Source of the DNA: Obrimoposthia wandeli
Lineage: Eukaryota
DNA: 64,000 nt
Direction: 5' to 3'
NCBI GenBank assembly: GCA_977020255.1
Contig: CDROCS010000103.1
Coordinates: forward strand, 620,001-684,000
A program made the translations under genes and the position numbers. The notes under the pieces were generated by a model that saw only the letters and a list, made by a program, of their open reading frames with translations, was not told where the DNA came from and ran no database searches. Each line of letters begins with the position of its first letter. Position 1 is the first letter of the stretch. This document shows, piece after piece, positions 44,892 to 64,000 of this stretch.

Positions 44892-45463
44892 AATTATCTC
44901 CACTGACTTGAACCTTTAATACAATCAATTATCTCCACTGACTTGAACCTTTAATACAATCAATTAGCTCCACTGACTTGAACTTTTAATACAATCAATT
45001 ATCTCCACTGACTTGAACCTTTAATACAATCAATTATCTCCACTGACTTGAACTTTTACCTTTAATACAATCAATTATCTCCACTGACTTGAACTTTTAA
45101 TACAATCAATTATCTCCACTGACTTGAACCTTTAATACAATCAATTATCTCCACTGACTTGAACTTTTACCTTTAATACAATCAATTATCTCCACTGACT
45201 TGAACTTTTAATACAATCAATTATCTCCACTGACTTGAACCTTTAATACAATCAATTATCTCCACTGACTTGAACTTTTAATACAATCAATTATCTCCAC
45301 TGACTTGAACCTTTAATACAATCAATTATCTCCACTGACTTGAACTTTTACCTTTAATACAATCAATTATCTCCACTGACTTGAACTTTTAATACAATCA
45401 ATTATCTCCACTGACTTGAACTTTTAATACAATCAATTATCTCCACTGACTTGAACTTTTAAT
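44892..45463. repeat. 35/41-bp satellite, 16 copies, with a ~111-bp higher-order unit
   Basis: AATTATCTCCACTGACTTGAAC(C/T)TTTAATACAATC; 41-bp variants at units 5, 8 and 13. Confidence 0.96.
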
Positions 45464-45565: not shown

Positions 45566-46255
45566 GAGGCACTGTACGTCAATCAATTGACAGCTGCTAA
45601 CGATTTGGTTCGGAAGATATCGGAGAGGCAAGGACTGGAATGTCAATCAATTGACAGCTGAAATTGAAATTTAGTTTACTGCACGAAAATGTGCTTACCT
45701 CTTGAAATCCTTGATTGACGTTTTTAATTAACCGTTTAATTTTCTGACTTTCTCCTTAATTAATTTTTTGTAACAATTGTCCTTTTTGGGTTAATTAATT
45801 TAACTTTTATACATTTTCGCATAATACACGACCTTCGTGGTCCTCCTAATTTTTACCCTAAATTCCACTAATTTTAATTTTAAAACTTAAATTAATATTT
45901 TAATTTAATTTTCAACCTTGCTTTCAAGGATTTTTATTTTAGTATTTAATCGACTAAAATATTTAAATTTCTTAATTCTCAATCCTAACATACCTCGGGG
46001 GTTTCAAAAAAGTTACGTCCCCGGAACGTATCGATTTTACTTAAATAAGCCTTTGGCTGTTGATTTTAGGTTCATCCCTACAAAATCAATCATTCAACTT
46101 CAACAAACATGCCCAAAAAAAAATTTTCCAAAATCCCGGTTTTTAGTGGGAAACATAATATATAATTTGGAGCAAGTCTCAAACCATACATTATTACTTA
46201 TAACAACTAAAAATTTACACAAAGGAAAGGTTCAAGGGTGATTGTCAGGGATATG

Positions 46256-46759
46256 TTAATTGTTCCTGTCTCGCAAGAATAGCAAGACCTGCTCCAGTGG
46301 TAGTTCTGGATACGATGGTGGGCCGCCATCGTACAGTATCATCTGCTGGCGCATGGTGAGGTGTTGACTCGGGTGGAAAATAGTTGTATATCGCCCGTGT
46401 ATTCCGCGATTTCTGAGCCATATTTGACGGCCACGCTGCCATGAGCGGGGGTCGCGAGTTGACCGGTATTTCTCGCGGAGGACGAGTTTCGCATCGCGAC
46501 GGCGCGCGATACAGTCGGGGCAATGGCAGTGCTCGCCACCAATACAGCTGGTGAGCGAATGGGTGCCCTTGTGGCGCCCTCGACACTGTAGTGTCCATTC
46601 CGCGAAGGGAGTACGGCAAAAGGGGCAATTGACATGTCCTTCGGGTCGAAGTCGGGCCCAAGTATATAGGCAGGATTCGTGGAATTTGTGACGGCAGCCG
46701 ACAGGGGATGCTGATACCGCCCAAATTTTCTCCATGCATACAGCGCACTTCATCTGCAT
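46256..46759 (-). CDS. RING-H2 protein 3 (167 aa) with extra Cys cluster and C-terminal PPSY motif
   Basis: CAVC...CRHKFHESC...CPFC (C3H2C3); SC...HCHCPDC; PPSY near the C-terminus; intact ORF. Confidence 0.88.
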   Translation of the reverse strand: MQMKCAVCMEKIWAVSASPVGCRHKFHESCLYTWARLRPEGHVNCPFCRTPFAEWTLQCRGRHKGTHSLTSCIGGEHCHCPDCIARRRDAKLVLREKYRSTRDPRSWQRGRQIWLRNRGIHGRYTTIFHPSQHLTMRQQMILYDGGPPSYPELPLEQVLLFLRDRNN

Positions 46760-47092
46760 AAGAAAATAACTCCTTTCAATTTGGGGTTCACCGTTCTCAT
46801 CGTTAATTTAAATTTTATTTCAAAACGAATCCTTAGTTATCTAATCCTATCGAGTTTTGTTTCGATTTTAGGCATGTTTACGCATTCACACTAAGCATAA
46901 AAATTGTCTTTTTAGAAATTCAGTATAATAATTACAATTTCAGTTAAACATCATACATAAAAATGGTAATGGTCAATTTACAGTTCACAAGATTATATAA
47001 TTATGATTACAATTATGGTAGCTAATTTATCGCGGTATGCGATACACAGGGTAGTTCATGATGTCACGTTCAAGTCAGAAAGTTACCTTCGA

Positions 47093-47398
47093 TTATTGTT
47101 GGGGATTGGGCTGGCCTGTGCTTCGCTCCTCCACGCAGAACGAGCACCAGCAATCGCAGATTGTTTTCCAGCAGTGTACGATGGGTACCACTGCTTGGAG
47201 GCTGTCTTGGTTGTACACGTAGTGTACTGAGAAGGTCGCTCTGCACATCGGGCAGGTTGGGAAGTCGAGGGGATTGTTGCTGTTGGCAATGGGGATCCAC
47301 GTCTCGAGGCATTCGACGTGGAAGAGGTGGTCGCAGTTGTTGGGCTTGGTGTAGAAGTCCACAATGCTCTCGTAGCAGATGGAACATTCTCCAGACAT
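47093..47398 (-). CDS. RING-H2 protein 2 (101 aa)
   Basis: CSIC...CDHLFHVEC...CPMC plus HCWKTICDCWCSFC; intact ORF. Confidence 0.9.
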   Translation of the reverse strand: MSGECSICYESIVDFYTKPNNCDHLFHVECLETWIPIANSNNPLDFPTCPMCRATFSVHYVYNQDSLQAVVPIVHCWKTICDCWCSFCVEERSTGQPNPQQ

Positions 47399-47458
47399 TA
47401 CTGTGGGAGGGTTGATGTTGAATTTGGGCTCGATTGAGGACTGGTGGTTGTGTGATGT

Positions 47459-47758
47459 TTACACAAAAGTGGTCTGATTTTGTCGATCTGACAAACAGTA
47501 ATAACACCAACACTCTCCGAAATTCTTCCAACAGAATACCACCTGTACATATACATCCTCTTGGTTGGGTTCTAACATGATGAATCTTGCGAATTGTCTT
47601 CTGCATACGGGGCAACAAGGGTATGTTGGATGTCCAAACTGTCCATAAGTTCTGATCCATGTCGATAAACATTCCTCGTGGTGTAAATGGTTGCAGGTTT
47701 CGGGTCTTGTTCTTCGTTCGGTTAGATCTTCCAAACATATTGGGCATTCTTCGGCCAT
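47459..47758 (-). CDS. RING-H2 protein 1 (99 aa)
   Basis: CPIC...CNHLHHEEC...CPVC plus FCWKNFGECWCYYC; clear paralog of RING 2. Confidence 0.9.
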   Translation of the reverse strand: MAEECPICLEDLTERRTRPETCNHLHHEECLSTWIRTYGQFGHPTYPCCPVCRRQFARFIMLEPNQEDVYVQVVFCWKNFGECWCYYCLSDRQNQTTFV

Positions 47759-47866
47759 TCTAAATACATGATGATGATTAATTTCTACATGAGTTTTATA
47801 TACTTCTACTATTTGTACAATCGCTTCTAGATATTTCTACATATTTCACACACTAATTTATCTACA

Positions 47867-47881: not shown

Positions 47882-50752
47882 TCATATCTTGATGGGAGGC
47901 GGAGGTAAGTCTAATTCCACTTCCTCCATGATGGGTGTGTCACAGCATCGCAATCCTTCGCATTTTCGTCGTATTCCTGGGCATACTTGACTGCCTTTTA
48001 CGCACACGATTGTCAATAAAACCACTGCTGTTGACACTACGGCCATTCCAATTAGGGCATTGACCGCTGTTATTCCGCTGTCTGATGATTTATAATCATA
48101 CTTCATTTTGTTGTTTGTTGGTTCGAATGACATTTCCATGGGTTTTGATCGGTTTCCATGTATTATGTCCGATTTTCTAAAAATTCGGGGATTTGGGTGT
48201 TTTGTTTCTGATGGAACAGGTATTATTATTTTGGATTGGAAATGATGTTTGGGATCTAGTGGGATCGTTCCCCTCACTCTTGTCCTCTTAATAATTGTAC
48301 TTTGGTTTCTGGACTTGGACTCTTTTTCTTTCGCTTCTGTCTTTGTTCTGATCACTGTCGGTTTTTCGGAATGTCGTTTACTTTCGTTTACTTTTGCCTT
48401 CTTTTTGACTAGGATTGGTCTTTTGGGAATGATTTTCCTGGGTTTGATACTTATACCGTATCTACGAAATCGACGGTTCTGGTATCTTAGAGTTATGTAG
48501 AATATTTCACCTGTTATTATCATGATTATGGTCGAGGTCTCTGTAGAATTACTGGCAATTCGATTACACAGACATTCTGTGTTAAAATGTGGTACTAACA
48601 TTTGGCTTTGGATTTCGAATCTGATTCCGCCATCTGGGTTGGGACACATTACTGTCACGCTGTCGGTTTCTAGCAATCTGAAAAATATCCTAACGGAATT
48701 CCATACGGCTTTGCGTCGTCTACCTGTGATCATAATCCTGTCGACAATTTTCCAGATGCGCTCATCTCTAGGCAATATTAATGACTTTGTTCGGATACTT
48801 TGGATAATCCGCTTCCTCTTTGATATTGTTATCCGTAGGTATAACACTCTTTCATGATACAATAATATTAAATTGTAATCGGGTGTATTTTGGTCGATTT
48901 TTATTCTGACCTGTCGGATGACATACAACTTCTGATCGATATTGTCAGTTGCTGACGTCTGTAGATGAATGTCTACTACGTGATCTGTTTTTAGTAGTGG
49001 AATTTCTATGTATACTGCCCGTATTACGTCTTGTCTCCATTTACTGATCATGATCTCATAACTAGCCTTGGTAGTGGTGATTTGTACGATCAGCATGATT
49101 CCTATGATCGTTCGATTCCTAAACTCAGGAACTTCAATGAAACAAGTCAAATTACTCATATAGTACGGTCTTTCCTCAATATGTTCATATATCGTTGGCT
49201 GGTACTCTGGTGCTGGTTCATCTAGAAATGGTGGTCTTGGTATAATTGTGTTGAATTTTTGTAAGTTCATTTGACCTGTTCGTCTTGCGAGATCATGCCT
49301 TTTCTTTTTTGATCTCAACTCTAACTTTGTACAACAAAACAAGATGAGTAATATTAATATTATAAATCCAATGATCAGTGCGAGTATTGGATTAACCAAT
49401 TCTAGAATACCGTAACGTACTGCTGGTATTCCTTTACTCTTGATGGTTAATATTTTAAATTTGTGTGCACTTTGGTTGGACATGTCACTGAGAAGCACTA
49501 TTTTAGTTTGTCCAAATATGTAGTCTTCACATGTGACAACACTAACTCCATAATGTCCATTAAGTGTTATCATTTCGGTCGCTGGGACTATACACATTCG
49601 TCCTGGACATCCTTTTACACACATGATCATCACGGCTCTACTGTGGGATGTCTTGATTATTTCCAGGGTGTTGTCTAGATTTCTCAAGTGTAAATTATAT
49701 TCGGATAGTGTCATCAATTCGGCTTTACTGGTTGGCATGGCTTGCAGTACCAATCCAATTACTACTCCATAAATCAATCCTTGTGCAACGGTGCACAGGG
49801 CCTTGACTGACCTTTTGCAAAGGGTTTTAATTATCAATCGTTTGAGAGATATCTGTTTCTGATTGGTTCGTTTTGTTGTCTGTCGTTGTTTTGACATCTC
49901 CTCGATTCCATCTCTTCCGATAATCAACTGTACCGGTTTACCTTGTATCGTCAACTTTCCGAATCCATTTTTGGCGGACAAGCATGTTTTATGTCCTTCC
50001 CTTGTTTCAATTATCACTCTCTTACTTCCATACTCACGTGTTTTGATGACATCGCCGTTGAATATATACGTTGGTCCTTTTGTATCAGCATCTTTTTGTA
50101 TTTCCTTTACAACTCGTTTTCTCCGCTTGCATCCGGCGAATGTTGTTGATATTCGGTCAAGTGTGTGCTGTCGGTCAGCTTCATAATATATTCGAAATTG
50201 ATTCAGTATTCTGTTTTGTGGGTAAAATATCGCTTCATTTACTATGTTGTCTTCGATCCTTTCGTCTAGATACACAAGCACTTTGTTCGTTGGTCCATTT
50301 GGTCTTTTCATCTTTACAAACTGAAATCTTTTACTGTCGGTTCTCATAGATCGAAGACATTTTCGGATGATCCATACATCAATTAGTCCTAACAACACTA
50401 ATAGCATCATTAGTGCCGGTGTATGGTACTGTATGGTGTAGTTGTGGATTTCGTTGAACCAGGAACTATTTCCGTGGTTGGAGCCTATCTCCTGTGCTCC
50501 CGTTATCGGCATTAGACAACTTAACAAGCCTATTGCTAACAATCTTTGGTATTGAAAGCTGGGCACTGTTGTTGTAGCTTCATTTGTTTCTCGTTGTTGC
50601 TTCCTCTTTTCGGTGTATTTTTCTATTTCTCGAACGAGTAACGGTTTGAATTCCGTATTTGGTCTATTCTGTTTGATGTAGACCATCGCTTCTTCTGGCG
50701 TGTGACCATGGTACTCTACCAACAAGGATACACCTATGGTAGGCGCTAACAT
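47882..50752 (-). CDS. 956-aa terminal reading frame: end of pseudo-DUSP, then three signal-peptide/ectodomain/TM units
   Basis: Open frame with alternating signal-like (LLAIGLLSCLMPITGA, GLIYGVVIGLVLQAMPTSKA, TIIGIMLIVQITTTKA) and TM-like (ALMMLLVLLGLIDVWII, PILALIIGFIILLILILFCC, ALIGMAVVSTAVVLLTIVCV) segments. Confidence 0.78.
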   Translation of the reverse strand: MLAPTIGVSLLVEYHGHTPEEAMVYIKQNRPNTEFKPLLVREIEKYTEKRKQQRETNEATTTVPSFQYQRLLAIGLLSCLMPITGAQEIGSNHGNSSWFNEIHNYTIQYHTPALMMLLVLLGLIDVWIIRKCLRSMRTDSKRFQFVKMKRPNGPTNKVLVYLDERIEDNIVNEAIFYPQNRILNQFRIYYEADRQHTLDRISTTFAGCKRRKRVVKEIQKDADTKGPTYIFNGDVIKTREYGSKRVIIETREGHKTCLSAKNGFGKLTIQGKPVQLIIGRDGIEEMSKQRQTTKRTNQKQISLKRLIIKTLCKRSVKALCTVAQGLIYGVVIGLVLQAMPTSKAELMTLSEYNLHLRNLDNTLEIIKTSHSRAVMIMCVKGCPGRMCIVPATEMITLNGHYGVSVVTCEDYIFGQTKIVLLSDMSNQSAHKFKILTIKSKGIPAVRYGILELVNPILALIIGFIILILLILFCCTKLELRSKKKRHDLARRTGQMNLQKFNTIIPRPPFLDEPAPEYQPTIYEHIEERPYYMSNLTCFIEVPEFRNRTIIGIMLIVQITTTKASYEIMISKWRQDVIRAVYIEIPLLKTDHVVDIHLQTSATDNIDQKLYVIRQVRIKIDQNTPDYNLILLYHERVLYLRITISKRKRIIQSIRTKSLILPRDERIWKIVDRIMITGRRRKAVWNSVRIFFRLLETDSVTVMCPNPDGGIRFEIQSQMLVPHFNTECLCNRIASNSTETSTIIMIITGEIFYITLRYQNRRFRRYGISIKPRKIIPKRPILVKKKAKVNESKRHSEKPTVIRTKTEAKEKESKSRNQSTIIKRTRVRGTIPLDPKHHFQSKIIIPVPSETKHPNPRIFRKSDIIHGNRSKPMEMSFEPTNNKMKYDYKSSDSGITAVNALIGMAVVSTAVVLLTIVCVKGSQVCPGIRRKCEGLRCCDTPIMEEVELDLPPPPIKI

Positions 50753-51060
50753 CGTACCTTTTTCTGATATATCAGAACGCCGTTTCCTTCTGTGACTTCA
50801 GCTTGGATGGTTTGAGTCAATTTCGTCAGATGTTGTTGTGCATCGTTTATTTCTCGATTGGAAGCATGTATGTATCGAGTGGTGTCGTCTTCAGTATTTT
50901 GACACAGACTAATTATCTCGTTTCCGACTTCAACAATGTTGATTACTCGGTTGATACTATGGAACTTCAATCCAGCAGTATCTATATCTCCTGGATGACA
51001 TAAAAATACTTTTGGCATTATCTGTGTAATTTTATCGACTCCGGCTAAAAATAACCCGGT
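50610..51060 (-). other. Degenerate second dual-specificity phosphatase domain (pseudophosphatase)
   Basis: ITQIMPKVFL, INRVINI, GNGVLIY, TIGVSLLVEYHGHTPEEAMVYIKQNRP parallel the first DUSP, but the P-loop reads YQKKGTMLA (no Cys/Arg) across a frameshift in an A5 run at ~50760. Confidence 0.7.
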
Positions 51061-51149
51061 CAATGATAATGCTTGGAGGAAATTCTTTTCCTTTGGATCC
51101 TCAGGAATGTCGTCCATCCGTCTTTGTTCTTGCAACAGAAGTTGGTAAT

Positions 51150-51548
51150 TTGCCAACTGTCCCAAAAATTAAGATTTGGGTTTGCAATACTTCTTCTCTC
51201 CTGTAGGTATTTTAGCGCTTCTAGTACCTGCATTCGTCTAGTCTTTATTAGGTATGCTAATACTAGAGTTGCTGATCGAGAAATTCCTTTCTGGCAATGT
51301 ACTAACACTTTTCCTTGGTTCCGGAGTTCTCTGTGAAGTATTTCGTTTGTTTCTACAAACCATTCAAGAAGATTAGCGTCCATTGAGTCTTTTACTCTTA
51401 ATGTCATAGCTCTGATCGTCTGATATTGCGATTTGTGATTCATTGTAACGTTGATCACATATGTTATCCCTTGTTCCAACAGTTTCTTTTCATCTGTTGC
51501 ATCCTCCACATTTCCGAGGTATAACTTACCTGGAATGATCTCACTCAT
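51150..51548 (-). CDS. Dual-specificity protein phosphatase domain fused downstream of integrase
   Basis: SEIIPGKLYLG, GITYVINVT, VKD (general-acid loop), VLVHCQKGISRSATLVLAYL (HCxxGxSRS at 51299-51273), RRSIANPNLNF. Confidence 0.95.
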
Positions 51549-52059
51549 TGGTGGCGTTAATTCTGACTCTTCAAGTTTTAGTCTTTCTAATCTCTTCTCT
51601 ATCTGTTCGTCGATGTTGGATAGTTTCGCCAGTTTCTTTCCTCTCAGCATTCGTATTGCTGGAGAGATATTCATCTTTGTCTCTGATGTCTGTTCCTTTG
51701 TTGAGTCTTCTTCCGACTCGGTCTCTTCTGCAGATTTAATTCGTCTTTCTTGTATATTCTGTTTCACGAATTCTATATTTTGTCTTTTTCTGCTCTCTTT
51801 AGCGAATTCAACCTCCATGGTTCTTCCGAATCGCTCTATTATGTTATCTTCGGATTCTGTTGATTCTGTATCGTTACTTTCCGGTTCACTGTCTTCACTA
51901 GACTCGCTCGAAGGGTATTCTGGTATGTCTGTCTGAACTGAAATTAATGAAGGGGTTAGAATAATTGGGTTGATTTCCCCTTCGTATTTGTGAATCGGAT
52001 ACGGTATTACACTATCTTTAAGTATCTCAACTTGGAACTGTGCTCCATAGCACATGACA

Positions 52060-52985
52060 ATTGTTTCTAATTTACCCATGATGGACAATCCATCGAAATA
52101 GGTAACATTCAGCTTAGATATCGGTGTCTTCGCATAATTAATTAAGTTTACTCGTATCTCGGTTGATGACGGCCATCGATTTTTTAGTAAAATTATAATT
52201 TCGTCGTTTATCGATGTAATTACACTTGGTGCGGATGATACTATTTCAGCATGATATTTTGGCTGGATTGAGTTGGTCACTTGTTCTCGGATCATATTGA
52301 TTCTTTGTGGCTTTTTATTTTTAGCTTCCCACTTCCGGTATCCGCTGTCAATGCGTAATTCTGCCGTTGCTTTGATGATTTTATTGTTAGTCACTTCCGG
52401 ATGGGTTGGCGAATGGAATCCTTCTATTACGCTCAACCTTACAGATACTTCCGTTTGGTCTGTATCTAACCGGTGAGATTCTGGTATACAACATACAATT
52501 GTCTTTCCATCAAAGTATTTGGTGTCCATCTGACAAATTATCTTTTCAGTGTCAGCGTCAATTAAATGGACTCTCATGATATCTCTTTTCCCATGTGAAT
52601 TACGTAATACCATTATTACATCGTGGTATTCTTGTTTGAGTCTTTTTGGTGTACCATGCAGTATGTGACCACCGGCCGGTTCTTTTTCTTCCTGACTGGC
52701 TAGTCCTGCTTCAGTACTGTCATAGTTCTGCCATGCAACTATGTTTGGTGTCAATGTGATTTCGATTATCACTTTCTCAGTCGTAAACACATTGGAATTT
52801 TGATAAAGTGCTGCGACTAGTGTATTTCCGTCGTAGTATGACACTCTAAGTTCGCACAGAAATTCGTTTGTCAGTGCATCTTTCACAATGACTTCTTTAG
52901 CCACATCTGTCGGTTGTGTTTTTTCGAAAACAACTATTATCTCTTCGTCTTCTTCTAATATCTCTTGTGGTGCGATGTGTCGGAT
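52060..52985 (-). other. Three ~65-aa related beta-rich repeats (possible IPT/TIG-like)
   Basis: Shared pattern I...P....e(I/V)I..L.n....i.V...d....i..l.v.Y(Y/F)DG.t(I/L) at ~52979-52800, 52667-52477 and 52247-52065. Confidence 0.65.
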
Positions 52986-53229
52986 TACTTCCTTTTCCTC
53001 TTGGTACTTCATTCTGAGCATACCAATTCTCGCTGGTTTTTTCTCGCTACCACTCGTCATCGTGTTTATGTAGTTCCGATCACTTATCATTCGTGTAAGT
53101 TTAATGGTATTGGTGTTCGATTTCGATTTCTGTGATCTTAACTCATATCGTGACGCATTATCTTTATTTGGTACTAATTTGCATCGATTTGCATGTACAA
53201 TCATCGGTTCCTTGTTCCGATTCTCTTCG

Positions 53230-54210
53230 TTGATTACTTTCAAATTTGTTGAGGTTGTCTGGATCACTTTGTACGGTCCTTTGTATGGTCTATGAAGTTT
53301 AAACGATAGACCTGGTTCGATGACTGGATAAAATATCATCACTTGATCTCCGACTCTAAATTCATGTGGTTTTGCTTTTTTGTCGTATTGTTCCTTGTAA
53401 CCTTCTTGATTGAATTTCAACTTCAATCCGGCTTTGGTCCAAGCATCTTGTAACCTTTCCTTCATAACGACAATGTATTGTTCAGTTTCTAGGTACTGAG
53501 ATGTTGGCTCGGTCCACTCCAGATCCATTGGCATATTGTTCTGTCTGAGATACATCAGATAGAATGGTGTGTGACCCGTCGCCTCTCGAACTGAATTCCT
53601 GTAAGCATATAAACATGAAGGTAAATATTTATCCCAATCCTCTTGCTTGTCTGAGCAATAGGATTGTACCATCATACATAAAGTTTTATTAAACCTTTCT
53701 ACCAGACCATCTGTCTGTGGGTGATATGGTGAAGTTTGTAACTTCATGATTCCGAATATCTTCGATACTGCTTTTATGACTTCTCCAGTGAAGTTCTTAC
53801 CTTGATCCGTTAACAACTTTCTAGGCACTCCGTATCGAAATATTATCTCTTCCACTAAGATTTGCGCTATTGTTTCAGCTTTCTGGTTCTGCATGGGATA
53901 TGCTTCTACCCATCTCGTCATGTAATCCGTAAATACTATGACATACTTGTTTCCTTTACTTGATTCTCTCAATGGTCCCAATATATCCATCGCTGTGAAT
54001 TCCATTGGTGCCAAGGGAACTGGCATTGGTTTCAACGGAACTTTAGTACGAGTTCCGGTGTCTTTTCTGGTTAAACATACTTTACATTGTTTACACCATT
54101 GTTTTATGTCGTCTTCCATACCATCCCAATGGTACTTCTCTTTGATTCTGGCTATCGTCTTTCGCCCTGACAGATGTCCTCCTAGTGTTCCGTCGTGATA
54201 CTGGATCATC
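53230..54210 (-). CDS. pol: Integrase (HHCC zinc finger, DDE core, GPY/F-type C-terminal module)
   Basis: HDGTLGGH...CKQCKVC, AMDILGPL, TDQGKNF, SPYHPQTDGLVERFN, YKGPYKV; inside the 1309-aa ORF 51060..54989. Confidence 0.97.
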
Positions 54211-54499
54211 ACTGCTGTTTTCAATGACTTCGGAATTACTACTACTATCTTTCCGACGTTATTGACAATATACAAGATTCCTTCTTTTATCAGTATTTTC
54301 TTCGTCATTTCATCGTTTAGATCTCCTTTCACCAACAATTCTTTAATTAGACTCAGTTCTTCATCTTCTTTCTGTTCTTTGATGATCTCTTTGTCTATTT
54401 TACCCGTCTTTAGCAAAATCGTCAGTAGATTTGCTTCTCCTTTTTGATCATTGGTTTCATCTTCTTCTGGAATTATGTTTCCTTTCTCGTCTACATTTG

Positions 54500-55800
54500 T
54501 CAATCTCGATAAACAATCTGCGTTGCCGTTCGACTTTCCGGTTCTATAACGGATTTCTAGATCGAATTCGGCCAATTTTAGAAACCATCTGTTTAATCTA
54601 CTCATCTCATCTCTATGTTTATACAAGAACTGTAGTGGTTTGTGATCTGTATACAGGAATACTTTTTGTCCTAGCAAATAGTGTCTGTACTGTCTACATG
54701 AATACACTATGGCTAGACATTCCTTTTCGATAACAGAGTATCCTCTTTCGGCTCTGTTTAATCCTCTACTCGCATACGCAATGACGTGTTCTCTTCCTTC
54801 GTCATCCTCTTGTCCCAATACTGCTCCTACAGCATAGTTACTTGCATCTGTCATAAGTATGAATTGTCGGTTTATATCTGGAAACGCTAATATCGGTGCT
54901 TTTATCAATCTTTCTTTTAAATGCTCGAACGCTTGTTGGGCTTCTTCTCCCCATATGAACTTCTCATCTTTTCTCGTCAACTTTCTCAATGGTGTTGCTA
55001 TATCTGAAAAATGTTCAACAAATCGTCTATAATAATTCGCAAGACCTAAAAAACTCTGTATCTCCTTAACAGTCTTTGGCGCTAAATGCGCTTTTACTTT
55101 CTCGATCTTTGCTGGATCAGGTCGAATGCCTTCTTTCGATACTATATGTCCTAAAATGTTACTCGCTCTTTAGCCCATTCGCATTTTGTAGGTTTAACTT
55201 TTAATTTAGCGTTTTCCAGTCTTTTAAATACAACTTCAAGATTTTTTAAATGTTCTTCGAACGTTTTCGAAAATATTATTATGTCATCAATATAAACCAT
55301 CGTGTTTGCACGATGCGAGTACAAAATTCATGCAACGCTGAAATGTTGCTGGAGCTCCTGGCAGTCAGTCGAATGGCATCTTTTCGCATTCGTATAATCC
55401 ATCTCCGCAGGAAAAGGCTGTTTTGTGTTTATCCTCTTCCTCTATCTCGATTTGCCAGTATCCACTCTGCAAATCTAATGTTGTAAAATAATCTGAATTA
55501 CCCAATTTATCGAGCATCTCTTCGATTCTAGGTAATGGATACACATCTTTTCTTGTGATCTTGTTCAGTTCTCTGAAATCTATACAGAATCTCATTTTCC
55601 CATCCTTCTTTTTTTACCAACACCACAGGTGCTGAGAATGGCGAAAAACTCGGTCTAATTACTCCTGTTTTAGACATGTCTTCGATCTGACTTTTTACTT
55701 CATCTTGTAATTGTAATGGTACTCGATATGGTCTTCTTCTGACTACTTTGTCTTCTGTCAGTGGTATTGTATGTTTTATGACAGGTGTTTCTCCTATGTC
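54500..55800 (-). pseudogene. pol: Reverse transcriptase and RNase H, frameshifted
   Basis: PYRVP, SPFSAPVVLVKK, RFCIDFRELN, YPLPRI, LDLQSGYWQI, YIDD, LGHIVS, FLGLANYYRRF, TDASNYAVGAVL, EKECLAI, TDHKPL, NADCLSR. Confidence 0.97.
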
Positions 55801-56259
55801 ATATGGATTTTTTGCAATTACTTTTGGAAATTTATGTATTAGATCAAGTAATTGTTTCTTTTCTCTAGTTGTCAGTCTTTCTGATTGGATTACTATTTCT
55901 TCGTAATCATTCGTATCTTTATCGAGTTTCATAGCACACACGGTGGAATTCTCCATCTGTGCTATCTTTCCCAACCTCATTCCTCTGTATAATAGAATGT
56001 CATTGTTGGTTGTATTCATCAGTCTAACTGGTATTTTGTGGTTTTCGATCAGACATACTGTACTCACAACTGGTAATTCGTATTTCTCTATGAAATCTCG
56101 TGATGGTTCGAACACAACTGGTCCTTTATCTTCTGATAATGTGTGACCTTGAATGAGAAATTGTGATCTTTTACCGATTTTTATAGGATTCTCTATAATT
56201 ACATCAATTTGGTTTATTTGTCTGTTTGATGTGCTATCCTTCAATCTTGGATCTTGTAA

Positions 56260-56560
56260 ATCAATACTTATCCCTTTAAGTTGTGATAGTACATCCATTC
56301 CTAAAATTGTAGGTTCAGGACATTCTTTCATGATTCTAACTGGTATAGTGATCGTATTACGTCCAATTATAAATGTACATGGTAATATTCCGTCACTTTT
56401 ACAGGGTCTCCATTGACCGATACCAAGAATTCATCTGGTTCTGCCATTGTTCGTTTCTGTTCCTCTGTCAAACAGTCTTCACTTACTATCGAAGCCACAG
56501 CACCTGTATCAATTAAGGCTTTTACTCTTAAATTATTTACTCTAATGATAGCTGCTGGTC
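56260..56560 (-). other. Retroviral-type aspartic protease 2 (adjacent to RT)
   Basis: KALIDTGAVASIV (DTG at 56510-56502) and, after a frameshift, TILGMDVL. Confidence 0.92.
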
Positions 56561-56684
56561 GCTGTGCTCCATTTATGTTTCCCATATGGTATATTGTATT
56601 TATCGAATTATTACACTCTGTCAGTCCACTTCCTATGTTTGGATAGTGAAATCTAATATTTCTCACTTGTCGATCTATTATTCT

Positions 56685-57680
56685 TCGACAAATCGGACAT
56701 GATACCATTTTATTCGCACATCTCCGACATGTTCTTACATGTCCGCATGGTAGAAAAGGCAACTTCTATTTTGTTGACCATGCAAACTGCGCATTCCGGA
56801 TCTTCTAGTACGTATTCTAGTTCATTTATGTACTCTTTTCTCTTTTGTTTCAATTGTACTGTCATCTTTATCTCGCAGTAATTCAAAAAATCGATCCGTA
56901 TCCATTTCGCGTAGTTTTTATTTTTAATTCTACCAATTCTCTGATTCTTTCTGCTTCTTTTGGATATAACCTTCTCACGAATGACACTACCGGTGTGTCT
57001 TGTTGAGCCAAAATCTCTTTCCGTGTGATTTGGTATTCGATTATACATTCGGTTTTTCTGTTCTTTTTTGCTTTATTTTGTTTTTAAAAAGTACAAAATT
57101 CGCAAAATTCATGATGTAAAAATTTTCTTAGGTAGCTCAAGAGTGTATCTGTCGATAATTCATTCTTTTTTACACTTGTGGCAATAAATTAAGTCTTTAC
57201 AATACTTTTTTATAGCAAAAAGTCCCTTTTTTGCCAATTTTTTAAGTCTTGGGTCTTCGAAGGTTATTTCTCGATACTGTTCGTCACATTCGTTCACTTC
57301 TCGCATAACTTCGAATATATCTTCAATTCGACTATTCGTTATTACTCTTCCTGTTATTAGAGCTGATTCTCCTTTTGGAATCCCGTCACTGTAATCGAAA
57401 TCGGGTGCTTTTCCCGTTTGGATTTCTGGTACGTTTGACGTTTTAAGTTTCAAAAGAAATGGACAATTTGGTGCATCTCTTTTATGACGTCTCATTGGGT
57501 TTTCATTCTGTTCCCATTCTCTAAACTTTACTCTACACCATACGCATCGTACTACTATCTCCTGACCATAACTACTTGTCGCGTTTAACATTTCTAGGCC
57601 TGATCTTGCCATTTTACGTGCCATTCCTTTTGAATAGTACTGTTCTAATATATTTCGTCTCTTTCTCTCGAATCTCATAG
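56685..57680 (-). other. IAP-like module: intact BIR, degenerate second BIR, C-terminal RING-HC
   Basis: CVWC-x16-H-x6-C at 57546-57463; LAKKGLF..CHKC..HHEFCEF (frameshifted); CAVC..F/LPCGH..C..CA....CPICR at 56793-56685. Confidence 0.92.
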
Positions 57681-57919
57681 GATCCTTTTCTGACAGATTC
57701 ACGTATGTTATTTTTCTCCTCGTCGTATCTTGTGGTCCGAAATTTACATTTTTGTAGTGAAGTATCGACTTTGCTAGCGCTTCCTGTTTTTTTGTCTGGG
57801 TACGAACTTCCCATACGGAACGTAGTGCATTTTTCCTTTTCGACTATAGGTCCTCTCAACATTTTTATCTCTCTCACTGAACTGTCATTCTTATAACTCT
57901 TGTTGTTTGGTAGTATTAT

Positions 57920-58210
57920 TATTCCTTCAAACATTCGTATTACGTCCATCCCAATCATGACTGGACTACCGCAATCTGTGAATATTCTAGCATTTAACTG
58001 TAATGCTCTTCCATCGATATTCAATGAACATTTCAGTGTTCCTTCCGACACTACATCTGTACCATTCACGTTAACAAATGTCTGTTTTCTAGGACATACT
58101 TCTCTTAATTCTTTTGATGACAAGATTTCTTTACTCAGTACTGATACTGCAGATCCGGTATCAACTTCGGCAAGATATTCTCTTCCGTTCAATGTTACTG
58201 CTACTTGTGG
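57920..58210 (-). other. Retroviral-type aspartic protease 1
   Basis: LAEVDTGSAVSVL (DTG at 58162-58154) and VMIGMDVI. Confidence 0.92.
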
Positions 58211-58559
58211 TGGAGCATTTGGATTCTCATTTGATATTCTAGATTTCAGAATTCTTCTGGAATTATCTTTTGTCTTTTTCCTCTGCTTGTGGAATTTCAC
58301 TGTAGCTTACTTTAGGCCATCTTATCATTAAGATGCCTCTCTTGAACTTTCCTTTTCTTCCTTCAATTCCTTCATTGGATATAAGTTTAACGCCACTTCT
58401 TCCTTGTCTGGTAACGGAATCTTTGGTTTTCCTGGTATCTTTGCATATACTCCTGGACTATCATTATCGTCGTCGTTGTCGTCTCGATAGTTTCTTGGTT
58501 CTCTCATCATGGTTCTCGTTTGGTGTTGTTCCTTCTTGAGGGCTCGCAACTCGTTCTCG

Positions 58560-60414
58560 TGATGATGGTGCATTAGATATTTTGCTAAAAATGGAAAACA
58601 TCCAATTATAAGTTGCCAGGTGATTCCGGTTATCCTGTATAAACTATACGTAGACAACACCTGGGCTATAATTACCTGCACAAATTTGGTATAACATAAA
58701 TACCTATGATACCCGAAAATAATTGTCCTAAAACAAGGAATTTCCCCACATCTTTCTAAGTGTCTGATGTGCTGCTTCCTTGAAATGACTTGGCGATAAT
58801 AACATATCGAAATTCACATATCTCGCTCCTGGCGGTAATGCTCGATGTACCATCTCCGTAAGTACTCTGGCTCTTCTTACTGGAAACATTATTTCGTTCC
58901 ACGCCGCTTTTAAATCTTTTCATTGTACAATCCTGCGTTCTCCATATTTTCCACCGCTTGGAATTTCATTTTACCTTTAAGATTCGTCATTCTTATCATC
59001 GCTGGGGTTTTCGTTGGCTTCCGATCAGGTAACGTTATCCATAGATTATTCGTCATCTGATATTCAGGTGCCATTATATTAGAGCAGCTGATTTCTTGAG
59101 TTGGAGTGTCTTTTGGAAGTAACATTCTCGTGATTGGTTCAACAAAAGATCTTTTAAATTATACGTTACTGCCAATTCACTCGTACATCGATCTGTTTTC
59201 CTCAACTGTACCTCTACTTTATTACACTTGTAAGTATACAATACTTCTCCCATGGTTTTAGCAAATACTCCTTCATCCAAGGGTAATAATGGTGCTACCA
59301 TGTCTGGATTCGTAATAGCTAATGCTAACTTTGTTCTTACGATCTCTTTATTTAACTTCAGCAATCTCTTTCGATCATCATCCGATATAACTGTTCCATT
59401 TGCATCAATCCTTTATGATAATAGAAATCAATTTTTATTATTAAAATGCGTGTGTAACTGCATATCTTTTTTGGTTTTAGCTTGGTTTCTGCCAATGCTA
59501 TTGCTTCTTTAGACAAAACTATTCCTGGATAGTTTGTGGTACTAACAGTCATTCCGCATCGCGCTTTGTTTCTCTTTTTAATAAATATCAATCCTTCTTC
59601 TATTGATGTTGCCATTAACAGTGTAGGTGTCTTTGTCATTGGAATTGGTCTTGTTTCATTTAGCAATCCTTTTCCAACTTTATTATACAGGAATCCTTCT
59701 CCATCTTTATTATACAGGAATCCTTTTTTTTATTAAAACTAATCTCTTTCAAAAATACTAGGAGCATTGCTTCGGATTTATGTGATACACAATTGTGGAT
59801 TCACCTGTAAAACAAGATGCATCTGTCATTTTACATTCTGGATACTTCATCATTAGTTGTGTCTTTTTATCAAAATTGGCGGTCCATGTTTTTAATTCAA
59901 TTTTGTAAGTTACGTCCATTACTAACTCGGTTACTTTGGTTCCACGCACGTTTTTTGTTCCTCCGTCACAAGATCCATCGGCCCATCGTTGTCCGACTCT
60001 CGTGACTGTTTCGTATCGTCTCACTCCAATTTTTACATCAGGTTTGTAATTCTTGTCTACCTCTATTGTTCCCGTTCGAAATGCGTCTTCGCAATCTCTC
60101 GGCAAAACCTTATGTGCCTTGTACGGTGTGGTAGGTGTGATTTCTGACATAAAACTTCTATGGCCACAATAGAATTCGTGATAACTTGAATGGATTGAAC
60201 ATTCTTTCACTTCTACTTGTACTTTATCAACATCCTGATACAGAAAGTAGTTTTCAACACCTTGAACTTCTAGTTTTGACGGTTGTGATTCTGGACAGTC
60301 TTCGCTGTCAAGCAGTGAATACTTTTGTCCCATCTTTGGTATGCTACAGTCATATGCTATCAATCCTGATGCCTGTTGCATTCCCATGAACATTACTAAC
60401 ATCATCATCATCAT
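58560..60414 (-). pseudogene. env: Envelope glycoprotein of the chuvirus/BEL-Pao-associated type, frameshifted
   Basis: Signal-like MMMMMLVMFMGMQQASG, then LIAYDC, YSLLD..DC, FYCG, DGSCDG, GEVLYTYKC.KVEV..R.TDRC..EL.V, F.EPITR, C-terminal TM pair LGQLFSGIIGIYVII and YSLYRITGITWQLII; recognised from memory of chuviral G motifs. Confidence 0.82.
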
Positions 60415-60534
60415 TGTTGTGGACATATTTGGTTGATTGTTTCTCTCTTTCGGACGGTATTGTTTATTTTCCCTTTGACGATTCTCATGACATTGTTCGT
60501 CATCGTCTTCATTCATTTCCACAATGGTTTTAGC

Positions 60535-60900
60535 ATAGTCACTTAATTTTGCCCAACCTCCATTTTCGTCAATTCGTCTCTGTAACACATTCTCGATCAA
60601 ATACATCGCTTCATTTATTCCTTGTTTGACTTCGTGAGGTTGGCTCGTTCGTTCCGTCAATTGGAAACATAGATATGTGATCGCTGTAATTAACTTTTTT
60701 ATTTGTAGTCTGGTTTCCACATAGTCTCGCTAAAACTTCACCAAATCAGATAATCTATCTATGGATGCATGGTATACATGATTCGCGGTCATTCTCTTTA
60801 CTGCAGACATCTGTGATCTGACTGCTTTAGTCAAATTGTCTGTTATATCGGTTGTTTCATCTCTGTACATTTTAAACAACTTCGGCTTCACTTGCCTGAG
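60535..60900 (-). other. Bcl-2-like helical domain
   Basis: VLQRRIDENGGWAKLSDY matches BH2 (WIxxNGGWxxF); upstream LQIKKLITAITYLCFQL sits in the BH1 position but lacks NWGR; one in-frame stop at 60732-60730. Confidence 0.62.
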
Positions 60901-61600
60901 AATTCCCGTAAGTATATCTTTACTACTTGGAGTTTCCGAATTCATATCACCTCTGATATCTTCATTCCTATCTGCACTATACTGCTCTAATGACGCCGCT
61001 AACTGTCCAATACTTAGATGTCTTTCTTCATCAGTTTGTGGTGCAGTTAGAACATTTCGTAATATACTTTCGCCTTTTCTAGGTCTTTAGGTCCTCTTCG
61101 AAAATACTGATACTCAGTTTGATTCTCTCCTGGATCATACGTTTCACCATTATACTGCATCTCGTGACTTGGTCCTTCTTCATGGCCAATCTCTTTTTTG
61201 TCGCATCATTTGCTCTGCTTGTCTATCTTTGTATGCAGCATGCCAAATTGGTGAATCCAAATCTACAATCTCGGAGACTTCGTCTTCTCTACTAGTTGGG
61301 TTACGGTTTCGTTTTGTCTCACTTGGTTAGCTGTATCCGTGACTTCATCTTGTCTGATTGGAATTATATCTGGTTCTGGTGGCACCTCGACCACTGGAGT
61401 TGTCAACTCATTTTCTAAATTCATGTCTTGTAATTCAGTTACGTACGGTTCTGGTGTGATGTCTTGTTCCAAGCTTCAGCTACATCATTATCTCCGCTTT
61501 CACTTGAACTGTCTAAAATTTCTATAGGCGTTTTTATCATTTCTTTTAACGCAGAATTCAATATCTCGGTTAATCCTTCATTATCTACTAACTCTTGACG

Positions 61601-61833
61601 TCCTACAGTGATGACATCAATTTTTTCCTCTAATTCATTTCCTATCGGATATCCAAACTCGACTGGTACGTCCTCATCATCTAATGATCTCCCTTTATAA
61701 TGGAACAACATATTCATTCCATCGAATTTCAAGTTTCTCAGCCAGCTTTTTCCAGAATCGTTTTCATTGTTTGATACACGTTAAGTTTTTCATGTATTAT
61801 CTGTCCGGAAATTAATCGAAGTGAAATTTTCAT
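61601..61833 (-). other. Ubiquitin/SUMO-like domain
   Basis: MKISLRLISGQIIHEKLNVYQTMKTILEK, then (A5-run frameshift) LKFDGMNMLFHYKGRSLDDEDVPVEFG...KIDVITVG follows the beta-grasp pattern. Confidence 0.62.
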
Positions 61834-62699
61834 CGTTCCTTTTGGTTTGATCTCTGTACATAACGACCATAACCTTTCAGTAGTCCTCGGTACTTCTTTG
61901 TAACCCAAGTTATCATGACTATGTTTAACCAATTCTGCTCGCACTTCTTCAATCGGTGCATTGCACTTTAATTGTTTGCAATTTGGCCAAAACTTCTGGA
62001 GCTTCACTCGTTTTCATCTAACGGTTGATTCAACGTTTCCTTAGCTTCACTAATTATCTTTTTTTACATTTTCCATACTCGTTGCATTTCTCGCTGCTTC
62101 ACATGATCAGCCATAGGTTGTGCGTTACACGTTTTCTCTATTGGTGTCTCATGCGCTTCTAATATTCTATTCATTAAATCATTCATCTCTTCTCTCGAAT
62201 GTGAACCTTTCTCTTGCACTCGACAACGTAGATGAATTCGCCATCTTTGTATGTGGTGAATCTTTTAATTATTCCCAACATTCGTTCAAATTTACTATCA
62301 CTATCTTTGAAATCTGTTATTTCGCGTCGAAGCTCGGTCTCGCGATTCCTATCACTAATCATCGCTTACATAACTAAAATTTCCTTTCGGTTTCGGCGAA
62401 TCTCTCTCATTATTTGTCTTGTCGACATTATTATTATTATATCTACCAGAATTATTATATCTCTCAGCTCCTTGCTGTCCTACGTATTATTGTATCTCTC
62501 AGCTCCTTGTAATGTAATGCTGCATAGTTATTATCTACCTGGTGACTGTTGTCTATCTGTATACTGATTATTCAGTCTCCATATGGCTGTGGAGTATATC
62601 CACCACCTCTATTCCATGGCGAGGTGAATTATATCCTCTATAATTATTTCCAAATTATTATTACCGAAATTATTATTTCCAAATCTGTTAGCTCGAACT

Positions 62700-63985
62700 C
62701 TTTACTTCTCGTACCATCTCTCGAATAAGTGACCCATTTGCTTACACGTGTAACACATTATTCTCCCTCGAATATCTATCTTATTTTGTTTTCATCTTCG
62801 AACTGTACTCGACGACTATTCTGTCTATTATCGTAGCGTCCTCTAAAAATCACATTTCTTCCGGAATTCGATTCAAAACCGCCCTCGATTATTGAATCTT
62901 CCGTCACTATTTCCTGCCATTTATTCCAAATCGAGTCACTTCGCTCTCTCTCTGTTGGCGTTATAATTCCTATCGTCTCCTCTCCAAGGTTGGCGATTTC
63001 CTGAATTATCTCTATTAAATCTATTCCTGGAATCATCTCTATTTCTATTCCACAGTCATTATTATTTCTACACTCTTGAATCATCTCGATTCCTGTTCCC
63101 AGACTCACTATTATTTCTCCTCGAATCATCTCCCGTTCCTACTTCGGGAAATTATCTCTATTTCCGTTGCACAGTTCCATCTACTTTTTCAAACTTATTT
63201 TGTCCATAATTTCGATTCTGAAAATTATCGGTTCTGTTTTATTCACGAAGACCTTTGTCTTATCGTCGTCACCTGCAGTCATTGCGTAAATTGCCAATGC
63301 TGCGTTATTTTTTGCTATTTCTCAATCTCTCTCTCTCGCCTTTCGCACGGCGTTATCAAAATCATTTGTATCCGATACTGCTAATAACACTTTAATATCC
63401 TTTTTCAATCCTCACTCTAAATATATCTAACAAGACCTCTGCCATTTCATTTTGGTTCCGGTCATTTTCCGCTGCTTGTGCTTCTGGAGCTACAGGATTA
63501 CCGTCCTGATTTCTCATTATTCTTCTTGGGTACGCTCTTGCGGCCAAGGTTCTCAAAAAACATACGCGCTATTCATTCACGCCTTCGTCATGTTTCTGTT
63601 TCCGTTCTCTCATGAGTCGCTTATTTACTTTGGCTAAATCTCCTAATACCAATTTTCAATAAAAGCATTTTTCCAACGTTGGCCAGTCTAAACGTTCTGC
63701 TTCTGTCAAATGTTTATACACTTCAAGTGCTAATCGGTTAAATATTGCCTGTACTTTGACACATTTTTCTTTATCGTTCCATCCTTGAACATCTGCACAA
63801 CTCGGAGTATTCTGCGAGGAAGTCACAAATACTTTCCTCATCTCCTTTAAACTTTGTAATCTGCAATGATCCTGAAAATTGGAGTCTCAACGTCGCATTT
63901 AAAGAAGCATTGCCAACTGCTCGGCATTCATGTCACCTACATTATTTCACTGCATTAATATCTGCTTGAGCTCTGGTTGAGCCAT
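62700..63985 (-). pseudogene. gag: Gag: capsid domain, N/R/D-rich linker, CCHC zinc knuckle; heavily frameshifted
   Basis: ITKFKGDEESICDFL, GWNDKEKC, RKQKHDEGVNE, DFDNAVRKARE; CYTCKQMGH at ~62755-62729; candidate ATG at 63985. Confidence 0.85.
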
Positions 63986-64000
63986 ATCTTCCAACTATAT

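Follow-up and report, generated by a model that had tools for sequence, protein, structure and literature searches.

Three RING-H2 genes are carried by a giant, Burro-like LTR retrotransposon in the 64,000-nucleotide stretch of Obrimoposthia wandeli DNA analysed here (hereafter the window). The cassette lies outside the LTR, between the polyprotein stop and the 3' LTR, with one set per element, and all three ORFs are under purifying selection. Judging from sequence, spliced RNAs are their probable messages and accessory E3 ligases their likely products; we tentatively propose that RING3 could be directed at SUMO-tagged proteins of chromatin silencing. The coordinates of the features are collected in Table 1.

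Table 1. Features of the retrotransposon and its RING-H2 cassette, in window positions.
Feature	Positions	Strand	Description	Basis or conservation
Polyprotein region	47882-64000	minus	frameshifted in this assembly	
PPT-TGTAGA junction of the preliminary description	47876-47861	minus	internal sequence just past the polyprotein stop, not the LTR start	
Acceptor-like TAG	47762-47760	minus	1 nt before RING1 ATG	YAG in 40/40 unbiased copies
RING1	47758-47459	minus	99 aa; RING-H2 + Cys4 accessory ORF	Pfam match, model, ligand spacing
Acceptor-like CAG	47403-47401	minus	2 nt before RING2 ATG	35/38 copies
RING2	47398-47093	minus	101 aa; RING-H2 + Cys4 accessory ORF	
Acceptor-like CAG	46756-46754	minus	directly before RING3 ATG	36/38 copies
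RING3, short allele	46753-46256	minus	165 aa from conserved ATG; RING-H2 + Cys4 + C-terminal region	
PPSY in RING3	46321-46310	minus	residues 145-148	restricted to window-type allele
True 3' LTR	45990-43836	minus	2155 nt; TGTT...AACA, then CATG	
Likely promoter TATA box	45811-45804	minus	LTR position 180; no LTR ATG downstream	
Candidate splice donor AG/GTAAGC	45700-45693	minus	cut AG^GTAAGC; LTR position 293; would act from the 5' LTR copy	

A Burro-like element and the limits of its LTRs

The element is 23.4 kb long in all three full-length copies, and its family numbers more than 5,000 copies. It encodes a single polyprotein of about 5,450 amino acids, which the copy on contig C1804, the one with the fewest breaks among the three, shows as abutting frames of 3099 and 2395 codons. 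The domains are, in this order, a zinc knuckle, a viral fusion glycoprotein, a protease, BIR, RING-HC, a protease, RT, RNase H, integrase and a dual-specificity phosphatase. The fusion glycoprotein (PF24664) is in frame, in one open frame, upstream of the protease. In the window (51060-58306), two aspartic-protease domains flank the BIR-RING module, and the phosphatase (DSPc) follows the integrase. The C-terminal ~950 residues (47882-50752) had no Pfam match; hydrophobic segments occur there several times, together with one PPEY-like run, 'PAPEY'. The PR-RT-RH-IN order, paired TG..CA LTRs, target duplication and tRNA primer site are those of Ty3/gypsy elements, the one such feature not found being a polypurine tract beside the 3' LTR.

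Burro, or GYPSM1, denotes giant gypsy retrotransposons of dugesiid planarians, which likewise reach thousands of copies and encode a single polyprotein of ~5,000 amino acids with a Gag zinc knuckle, BIR and RING domains and, preceding the protease in the same frame, a fusion glycoprotein of the mononegavirus type; accessory ORFs are present as well (PMC6431247). Burro is, however, more than 30 kb long, and the two protease domains and the dual-specificity phosphatase of the present element set it apart (PMC6431247). No Pfam match was obtained for MATH, BCL2, ankyrin, ubiquitin-like or dUTPase domains in the parts scanned, several of these being HHpred-only in the Burro literature. The element fits the published description of Burro except in length and some domains, and is here called Burro-like and not Burro. 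An older subfamily, at ~78% DNA identity, has the same cassette in the same place (20 loci, many decayed). At one locus (G000:C91:186500-196400, L191), tandem units lie ~5.2 kb apart, each with a RING cassette and an LTR; amplification of the cassette is thus possible in the absence of the polyprotein. Ubiquitin-like domains in long ORFs with retroelement-like flanks also recur in the genome (L189, L190, L192), where Rad60-SLD/ubiquitin-like matches number at least 150, and other mobile families may carry ubiquitin-pathway cargo.

A search with the 3' end of the element retrieved LTR pairs 21.4 kb apart on three contigs. In these full-length copies, both LTRs of a pair begin at the base that corresponds to 45990-45992 of the window, are 99-100% alike, and are flanked in all three by 4-bp target duplications (CTTT, TATA and CATA); three solo LTRs have the same ends, also with target duplications, and the 5' LTR is followed by a primer site with complementarity to a host tRNA-Met. 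The preliminary description had taken the TGTAGA that follows a purine-rich run as the LTR start, which placed the RING genes in U3; it likened them to HIV nef and MMTV sag, which are LTR-encoded genes, and implied that 5' and solo LTRs would hold a second set. The run is indeed there and is conserved, and the true LTR lacks a typical polypurine tract beside it. Nonetheless, RING sequence was found in none of nine 5' or solo LTRs, both 3'-LTR controls being positive, and the 5' LTRs begin at 45990, an outcome that the preliminary description had itself named as fatal to its proposal. Furthermore, the 40 closest copies of the RING region all extend upstream past the TGTAGA junction, 39 of them by 200 nt or more into the internal ORF and the remaining one by 56 nt. 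Genome-wide, the junction has 4573 exact matches, and 12 internal bases are kept upstream of it in 3817 of these (83%), although no more than about half could have them if an LTR began there; the junction is therefore not an LTR start. Set against 5316 LTR-primer-site junctions, the 4573 matches also amount to about one junction per element. The U3 location is thus refuted, together with the analogy to nef and sag and the second set of genes, and its probability is practically nil; the RING ORFs share with nef and sag a position as accessory genes near the 3' end but do not overlap the LTR.

Several observations were made on the LTR and its surroundings. No polypurine tract adjoins the 3' LTR, the preceding bases forming no purine run in either subfamily; a conserved stretch of ~45 nt (46035-45991, minus strand) abuts it in both and can fold as a hairpin of -10.5 kcal/mol, a value calculated without a shuffle control. 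The purine run of the preliminary description, 1.9 kb upstream of the LTR, is likewise conserved, and plus-strand priming of the element may be unusual. In most of the matches listed (e.g., L105-L134), 8 nt separate the LTR from the tRNA-Met primer site, a wider gap than in typical gypsy elements. At one locus (L136, G000:C2252:1-12000), tRNA-Met genes form a tandem array with 284-nt spacing (~38 matches). Within the LTR (44892-45463), 35/41-nt tandem repeats vary in unit and number between LTR types. The contig ends 753 nt past the window, and the 5' end of the window copy is off the contig; a 5' LTR on C660, 99.8% identical and with the same 4-bp flank, was rejected as part of the same insertion, the internal sequence being only 95-97% identical.

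Three RING-H2 ORFs under purifying selection

The three intact ORFs of the preliminary description were borne out, RING3 having an alternative upstream start at 46759 (167 aa). All three score above the Pfam cut-off for zf-RING_2 and have C3H2C3 ligand spacing, and the second cysteine cluster (Cys4; C-x5/6-C-x-C-x2-C) that had been claimed to follow the RING is present in each, its four cysteines being unchanged in all 12 sequences aligned, which represent the three paralogs and alleles from several lineages. Also found in the RING-H2 ORFs are the Trp and the post-Cys Arg that, in RING domains, have a role in E2 binding. The RING1 model (pLDDT 75.6) had RING domains as its best fold matches (Z of at most 7.3, rmsd 3.0 over 59 residues); the RING3 model was discarded as too poor (pLDDT 45). 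The Cys4 cluster was absent from the 21 sequences inspected among the best 150 of 8178 generic RING HMM matches, and was unmatched in the fold searches, the rows of which cover residues 1-74 only. No homolog was retrieved by word-indexed searches with either RING1 or alignment A1.

The shift in base composition that had been noted is real for the line at 46441-46500 (GC 0.62) and for RING2 and RING3 (GC 0.54 and 0.56, GC3 0.75 and 0.58, respectively), the polyprotein having a GC of 0.39, but it does not extend to RING1 (0.42). A 225-aa ORF overlapping RING1-2 was set aside; it had no Pfam match and is probably a by-product of the C-ending codons of RING2. That the RING ORFs are intact although the main frame is broken, another point of the preliminary description, is correct but of little weight, since the local rate of breaks alone would leave them intact with P=0.55. 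There are 41 frame breaks in 62-64 kb and 4 in 47882-55200; as the frameshifts become more frequent near the contig end and the level of substitutions hardly changes, they look like assembly error, and those of the window copy say little about the RING ORFs.

Selection was assessed in a near set, the 40 copies most similar to the window, which is biased by that choice, and in an unbiased set, namely the first 40 usable places among the junction matches listed, of which two lack RING2 and two lack RING3, partly at contig ends. Full-length ORFs made up 24/40, 26/38 and 23/38 of the unbiased RING1, RING2 and RING3 copies, respectively. Shared-variant pN/pS in the near set was 0.27, 0.06 and 0.17 in the same order; pairwise NG86 between lineages, over whole ORFs, was 0.47-0.49, 0.23-0.35 and 0.20-0.30, and YN00 gave 0.75 for one RING1 pair. 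Codon-model omega, given as point estimates from sets filtered for intact ORFs (23, 24 and 23 unbiased copies), was 0.50, 0.09 and 0.21. Mean amino acid identity in the same sample was 0.93 for RING2, 0.89 for RING1 and 0.69 for RING3, the last being far more variable than its neighbors, and an identical RING2 protein is encoded at no fewer than 150 loci. All three ORFs are under purifying selection, and the dN/dS check proposed at the outset thus supports functional, selected RING-H2 paralogs. The idea that they are captured fragments of host genes, carried along as neutral passengers without function, draws on the omega of 0.5 of RING1 and on the fact that the intactness of the window copy is uninformative by itself; it is contradicted by the omega values of RING2 and RING3, by the invariant cysteines, and by the occurrence of the cassette in both subfamilies despite their divergence. 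It is largely refuted by the selection data, and we consider it very improbable.

RING3 alleles and candidate spliced messages

The commoner RING3 alleles are 176-179 amino acids long and end in an [IV]DLT tail, which the window allele (165 aa) lacks. Window-type RING3 was found in 13 of 38 copies. These form a single clade with 100/100 support and a long branch; midpoint rooting, which does not give a tested root, puts the clade inside the diversity of the other alleles. The preliminary description had RING3 ending with PPSY and pointed to recruitment of NEDD4-family ligases. The motif is present, but 17 residues before the end, and PPxY occurs in only 9 of the 38 unbiased copies, all of them in the window clade, the other alleles having PSF, PAF, PVF or PTF at that place; NEDD4 recruitment is not supported as a family feature.

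Among the 25 remaining RING3 copies, [IV]DL[TI] is found near the end, in some frame, in 20, and [IV]DLT is present in all 17 intact long alleles. Its positions have 2, 1, 1 and 1 residue types on 4, 2, 5 and 2 codon types, respectively, i.e., the change is synonymous, whereas the flanking positions mostly have 3-7 residue types; the motif is absent from RING1 and RING2. VIDLT and VDLT are the type-b SIM cores of PIAS1 and RNF4, as described in part of PMC3901395, and a RING together with a SIM defines STUbLs such as ICP0, this being the design of RNF4, ICP0 and ORF61 according to part of PMC3685863. By motif, the long RING3 alleles have this combination, and the window allele, RING1 and RING2 do not. 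The same sources state that RNF4 needs tandem SIMs for avid binding (PMC3901395) and that EVIDLT in adenovirus E1A binds Ubc9, not SUMO (PMC3685863). When the complex of a 42-residue RING3 tail with a flatworm-like SUMO stand-in was predicted (the named relatives of the host SUMO, 3 of 5 matches, being flatworm proteins), a score of 0.46 was obtained versus 0.15 for the best control, with 69% agreement in contacts and a partner pLDDT of at least 50. In calibration, 51 of 78 solved pairs and 2 of 108 mismatched ones attained this mark, and the passes at 0.60 or below were 5 of the 78 solved pairs and all 4 passing mismatches. The prediction, which may reflect memory of solved SIM-SUMO complexes, hints that the long RING3 tail may bind SUMO. 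Since the tail-less clade still spreads, the SIM must be dispensable for at least one lineage. The analogy to ICP0 in the preliminary description, a guess at the time, gains from the conserved [IV]DLT of the other RING3 alleles but not from the allele in the window.

An acceptor-like YAG stands immediately before, or within 2 nt of, each of the three start codons. That of RING1 is kept in the older subfamily, and the GCAG before RING3 is kept while the bases upstream of it differ between lineages. As background, YAG occurs 0-2 nt before 48 of 447 internal-region ATGs (0.107), giving a post hoc P of ~1e-3. Because this conserved element precedes each start codon, the RING ORFs are probably read from cis- or trans-spliced RNAs; scanning is argued against by the out-of-place ATGs upstream, 3 before RING1 and 9 before RING3. 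With cis-splicing from a short first exon, each RING ATG would become the first AUG. Four sequencing runs, which behaved as DNA, contained no junction at the acceptors and so speak neither for nor against splicing. ORF3s of LTR retrotransposons are typically expressed from spliced messages, according to part of PMC5408684. The likely promoter is the LTR TATA box, found at LTR positions 140-230 in 54 of 65 LTRs; a TATA at 45566 was set aside, the one at 45811 being conserved. Beyond the box, G^GTRAG occurs on the sense strand of 17 of 24 LTRs and on the antisense strand of 1 of 24; AG^GTRAG was found in 28 of 65 LTRs (many truncated), and no single donor was common to all LTR types. A donor-like site just after the primer site was rejected as the main donor, since several LTR types do not have it and the repeat that contains it is variable. 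There is no ATG in 1701 nt of the LTR or in 1480 nt of the leader, where ~33 and ~37 were expected, and most of 30 unbiased 5' LTRs agree on this absence. The LTR (45803-43836) and the leader (on C1804) together span ~3.4 kb without a sense ATG, tandem repeats included, which would be an unusually long scanned 5' UTR.

Spliced-leader trans-splicing would be an alternative to cis-splicing; it occurs in planarians, and flatworm operon gaps are ~300 nt or less, as given in part of PMC12582326, the gaps in the cassette being 123, 60 and 339 nt. Expression could also proceed without splicing, through a RING1-RING2 fusion by stop readthrough, internal promoters or reinitiation. RING1 and RING2 do share one frame, with a single stop (TAA) and an open 60-nt linker that has no ATG and keeps its length in most older copies shown. 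However, the YAG is conserved at all three ATGs, the older subfamily has not retained the TATA-like box upstream of RING1, and several stops separate the polyprotein from RING1, so that this route appears quite unlikely.

Possible functions and known systems

We tentatively favor, with somewhat less than even confidence, a role of the three proteins as accessory E3 ligases made from spliced RNAs, RING3 being a likely SUMO-targeted ligase against chromatin silencing. A short 5'-LTR leader, or the host spliced leader, would be joined to one of the three acceptors; the RING1-3 proteins are predicted to be active E3 ubiquitin ligases; the long RING3 tail would bind SUMO; and the substrates, which constitute the least supported step, would be SUMOylated chromatin repressors of the piRNA/H3K9me3 pathway. 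RING3 in most lineages would thus strip SUMO-tagged silencing proteins from the element, and the window allele, having no tail, would target its substrates another way. SUMO takes part in piRNA-guided silencing in Drosophila. In mammals, SUMO-SIM contacts recruit SETDB1 to retroelements (part of a review, PMC12528215), and in planarians Burro1 is silenced by nuclear PIWI (part of PMC8532177). Against this reading stand the single SIM of RING3; its absence, with the tail, from 13 of 38 copies, the window's included; the lack of [IV]DLT in RING1 and RING2; the binding of Ubc9 by the E1A motif; the variation of the donor between LTR types; and the RING1 omega of only 0.5.

It is also possible, though doubtful, that the accessory E3s are aimed at cell-death or stress/innate signalling, alongside the BIR-RING (IAP) and phosphatase of the polyprotein, and that the tail serves only for nuclear placement or for Ubc9. 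The presence of BIR, RING-HC and DSPc in the polyprotein fits this, as do the Burro1 BIR-RING, reported second-hand in part of PMC13465017 to protect stem cells from caspase-mediated death, the E1A precedent for Ubc9 (PMC3685863, in part), and the lack of a SIM in RING1, RING2 and the short RING3 allele. However, the strict protein-level conservation of [IV]DLT within a variable tail points to a SUMO-linked job, and the Pfam scan found no BIR domain in any of the three ORFs. An action on the element's own proteins, i.e., turnover or sorting of polyprotein products or particles, with PPxY of the budding type in one lineage, would suit an element that encodes a viral fusion glycoprotein and carries PPxY in the window's RING3; against this, PPxY is confined to the minority of copies counted above, and RING3 is much more variable than RING1 and RING2, for which a changing host target is a better fit than a self target. 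We regard this self-directed role as unlikely.

Taken to its full extent, the SUMO-targeted reading would make this an animal LTR retrotransposon with its own SUMO-targeted ligase, an independently evolved, ICP0-like counter-defence belonging to an operon-like cassette of three genes that splicing resolves (possibly with the host spliced leader). RING3 would diversify much faster than its two neighbors, as expected of an arms race against piRNA silencing that depends on SUMO, and the ligase would help explain the high copy number; we consider this whole picture attractive but rather doubtful. It would bear on how giant planarian-type elements become so numerous in spite of nuclear PIWI, given that few anti-silencing proteins have been defined for retrotransposons of animals. 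The natural RING3 alleles with and without the motif offer a direct test of a 176-residue RING+SIM protein in an animal in which RNAi works, and the three acceptors predict specific RNA-seq junction reads that would tell cis-splicing from spliced-leader trans-splicing.

Among the titles and abstracts retrieved by literature searches, none dealt with 3' RING-H2 genes or with a RING+SIM protein in an LTR retrotransposon, and the Burro review (PMC6431247) mentions no three separate 3' RING-H2 genes, although the primary Burro descriptions may include such ORFs. By language-model features, the nearest clusters were small RING proteins of Nucleocytoviricota and Preplasmiviricota (large DNA and Polinton-like viruses), with scores of 0.94-0.90 for RING1 and 0.89-0.88 for RING3, a likeness without alignment that serves as a lead only. 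In bdelloids, the DEDDy and GDSL ORF3s similarly are non-env genes between pol and the 3' LTR, as described in PMC5408684, where the word RING does not occur; the present cassette differs in having three tandem paralogs, each with its own acceptor, and in being of the ubiquitin-ligase type. Compared with RNF4, ICP0 and ORF61, RING3 is a 176-aa, retrotransposon-encoded RING-H2 protein with a single SIM and an extra Cys4 cluster, for which no counterpart was found, and it has no homology to them outside the RING. In its design, nevertheless, long RING3 resembles the STUbLs RNF4, HSV-1 ICP0 and VZV ORF61, as these are described in parts of PMC3901395 and PMC3685863, in joining a RING to a short SIM motif; its [IV]DLT core is like those of PIAS1 and of RNF4 SIM2/3 (PMC3901395), and its arrangement, with the RING N-terminal and the SIM C-terminal, is that of ORF61 (PMC3685863).
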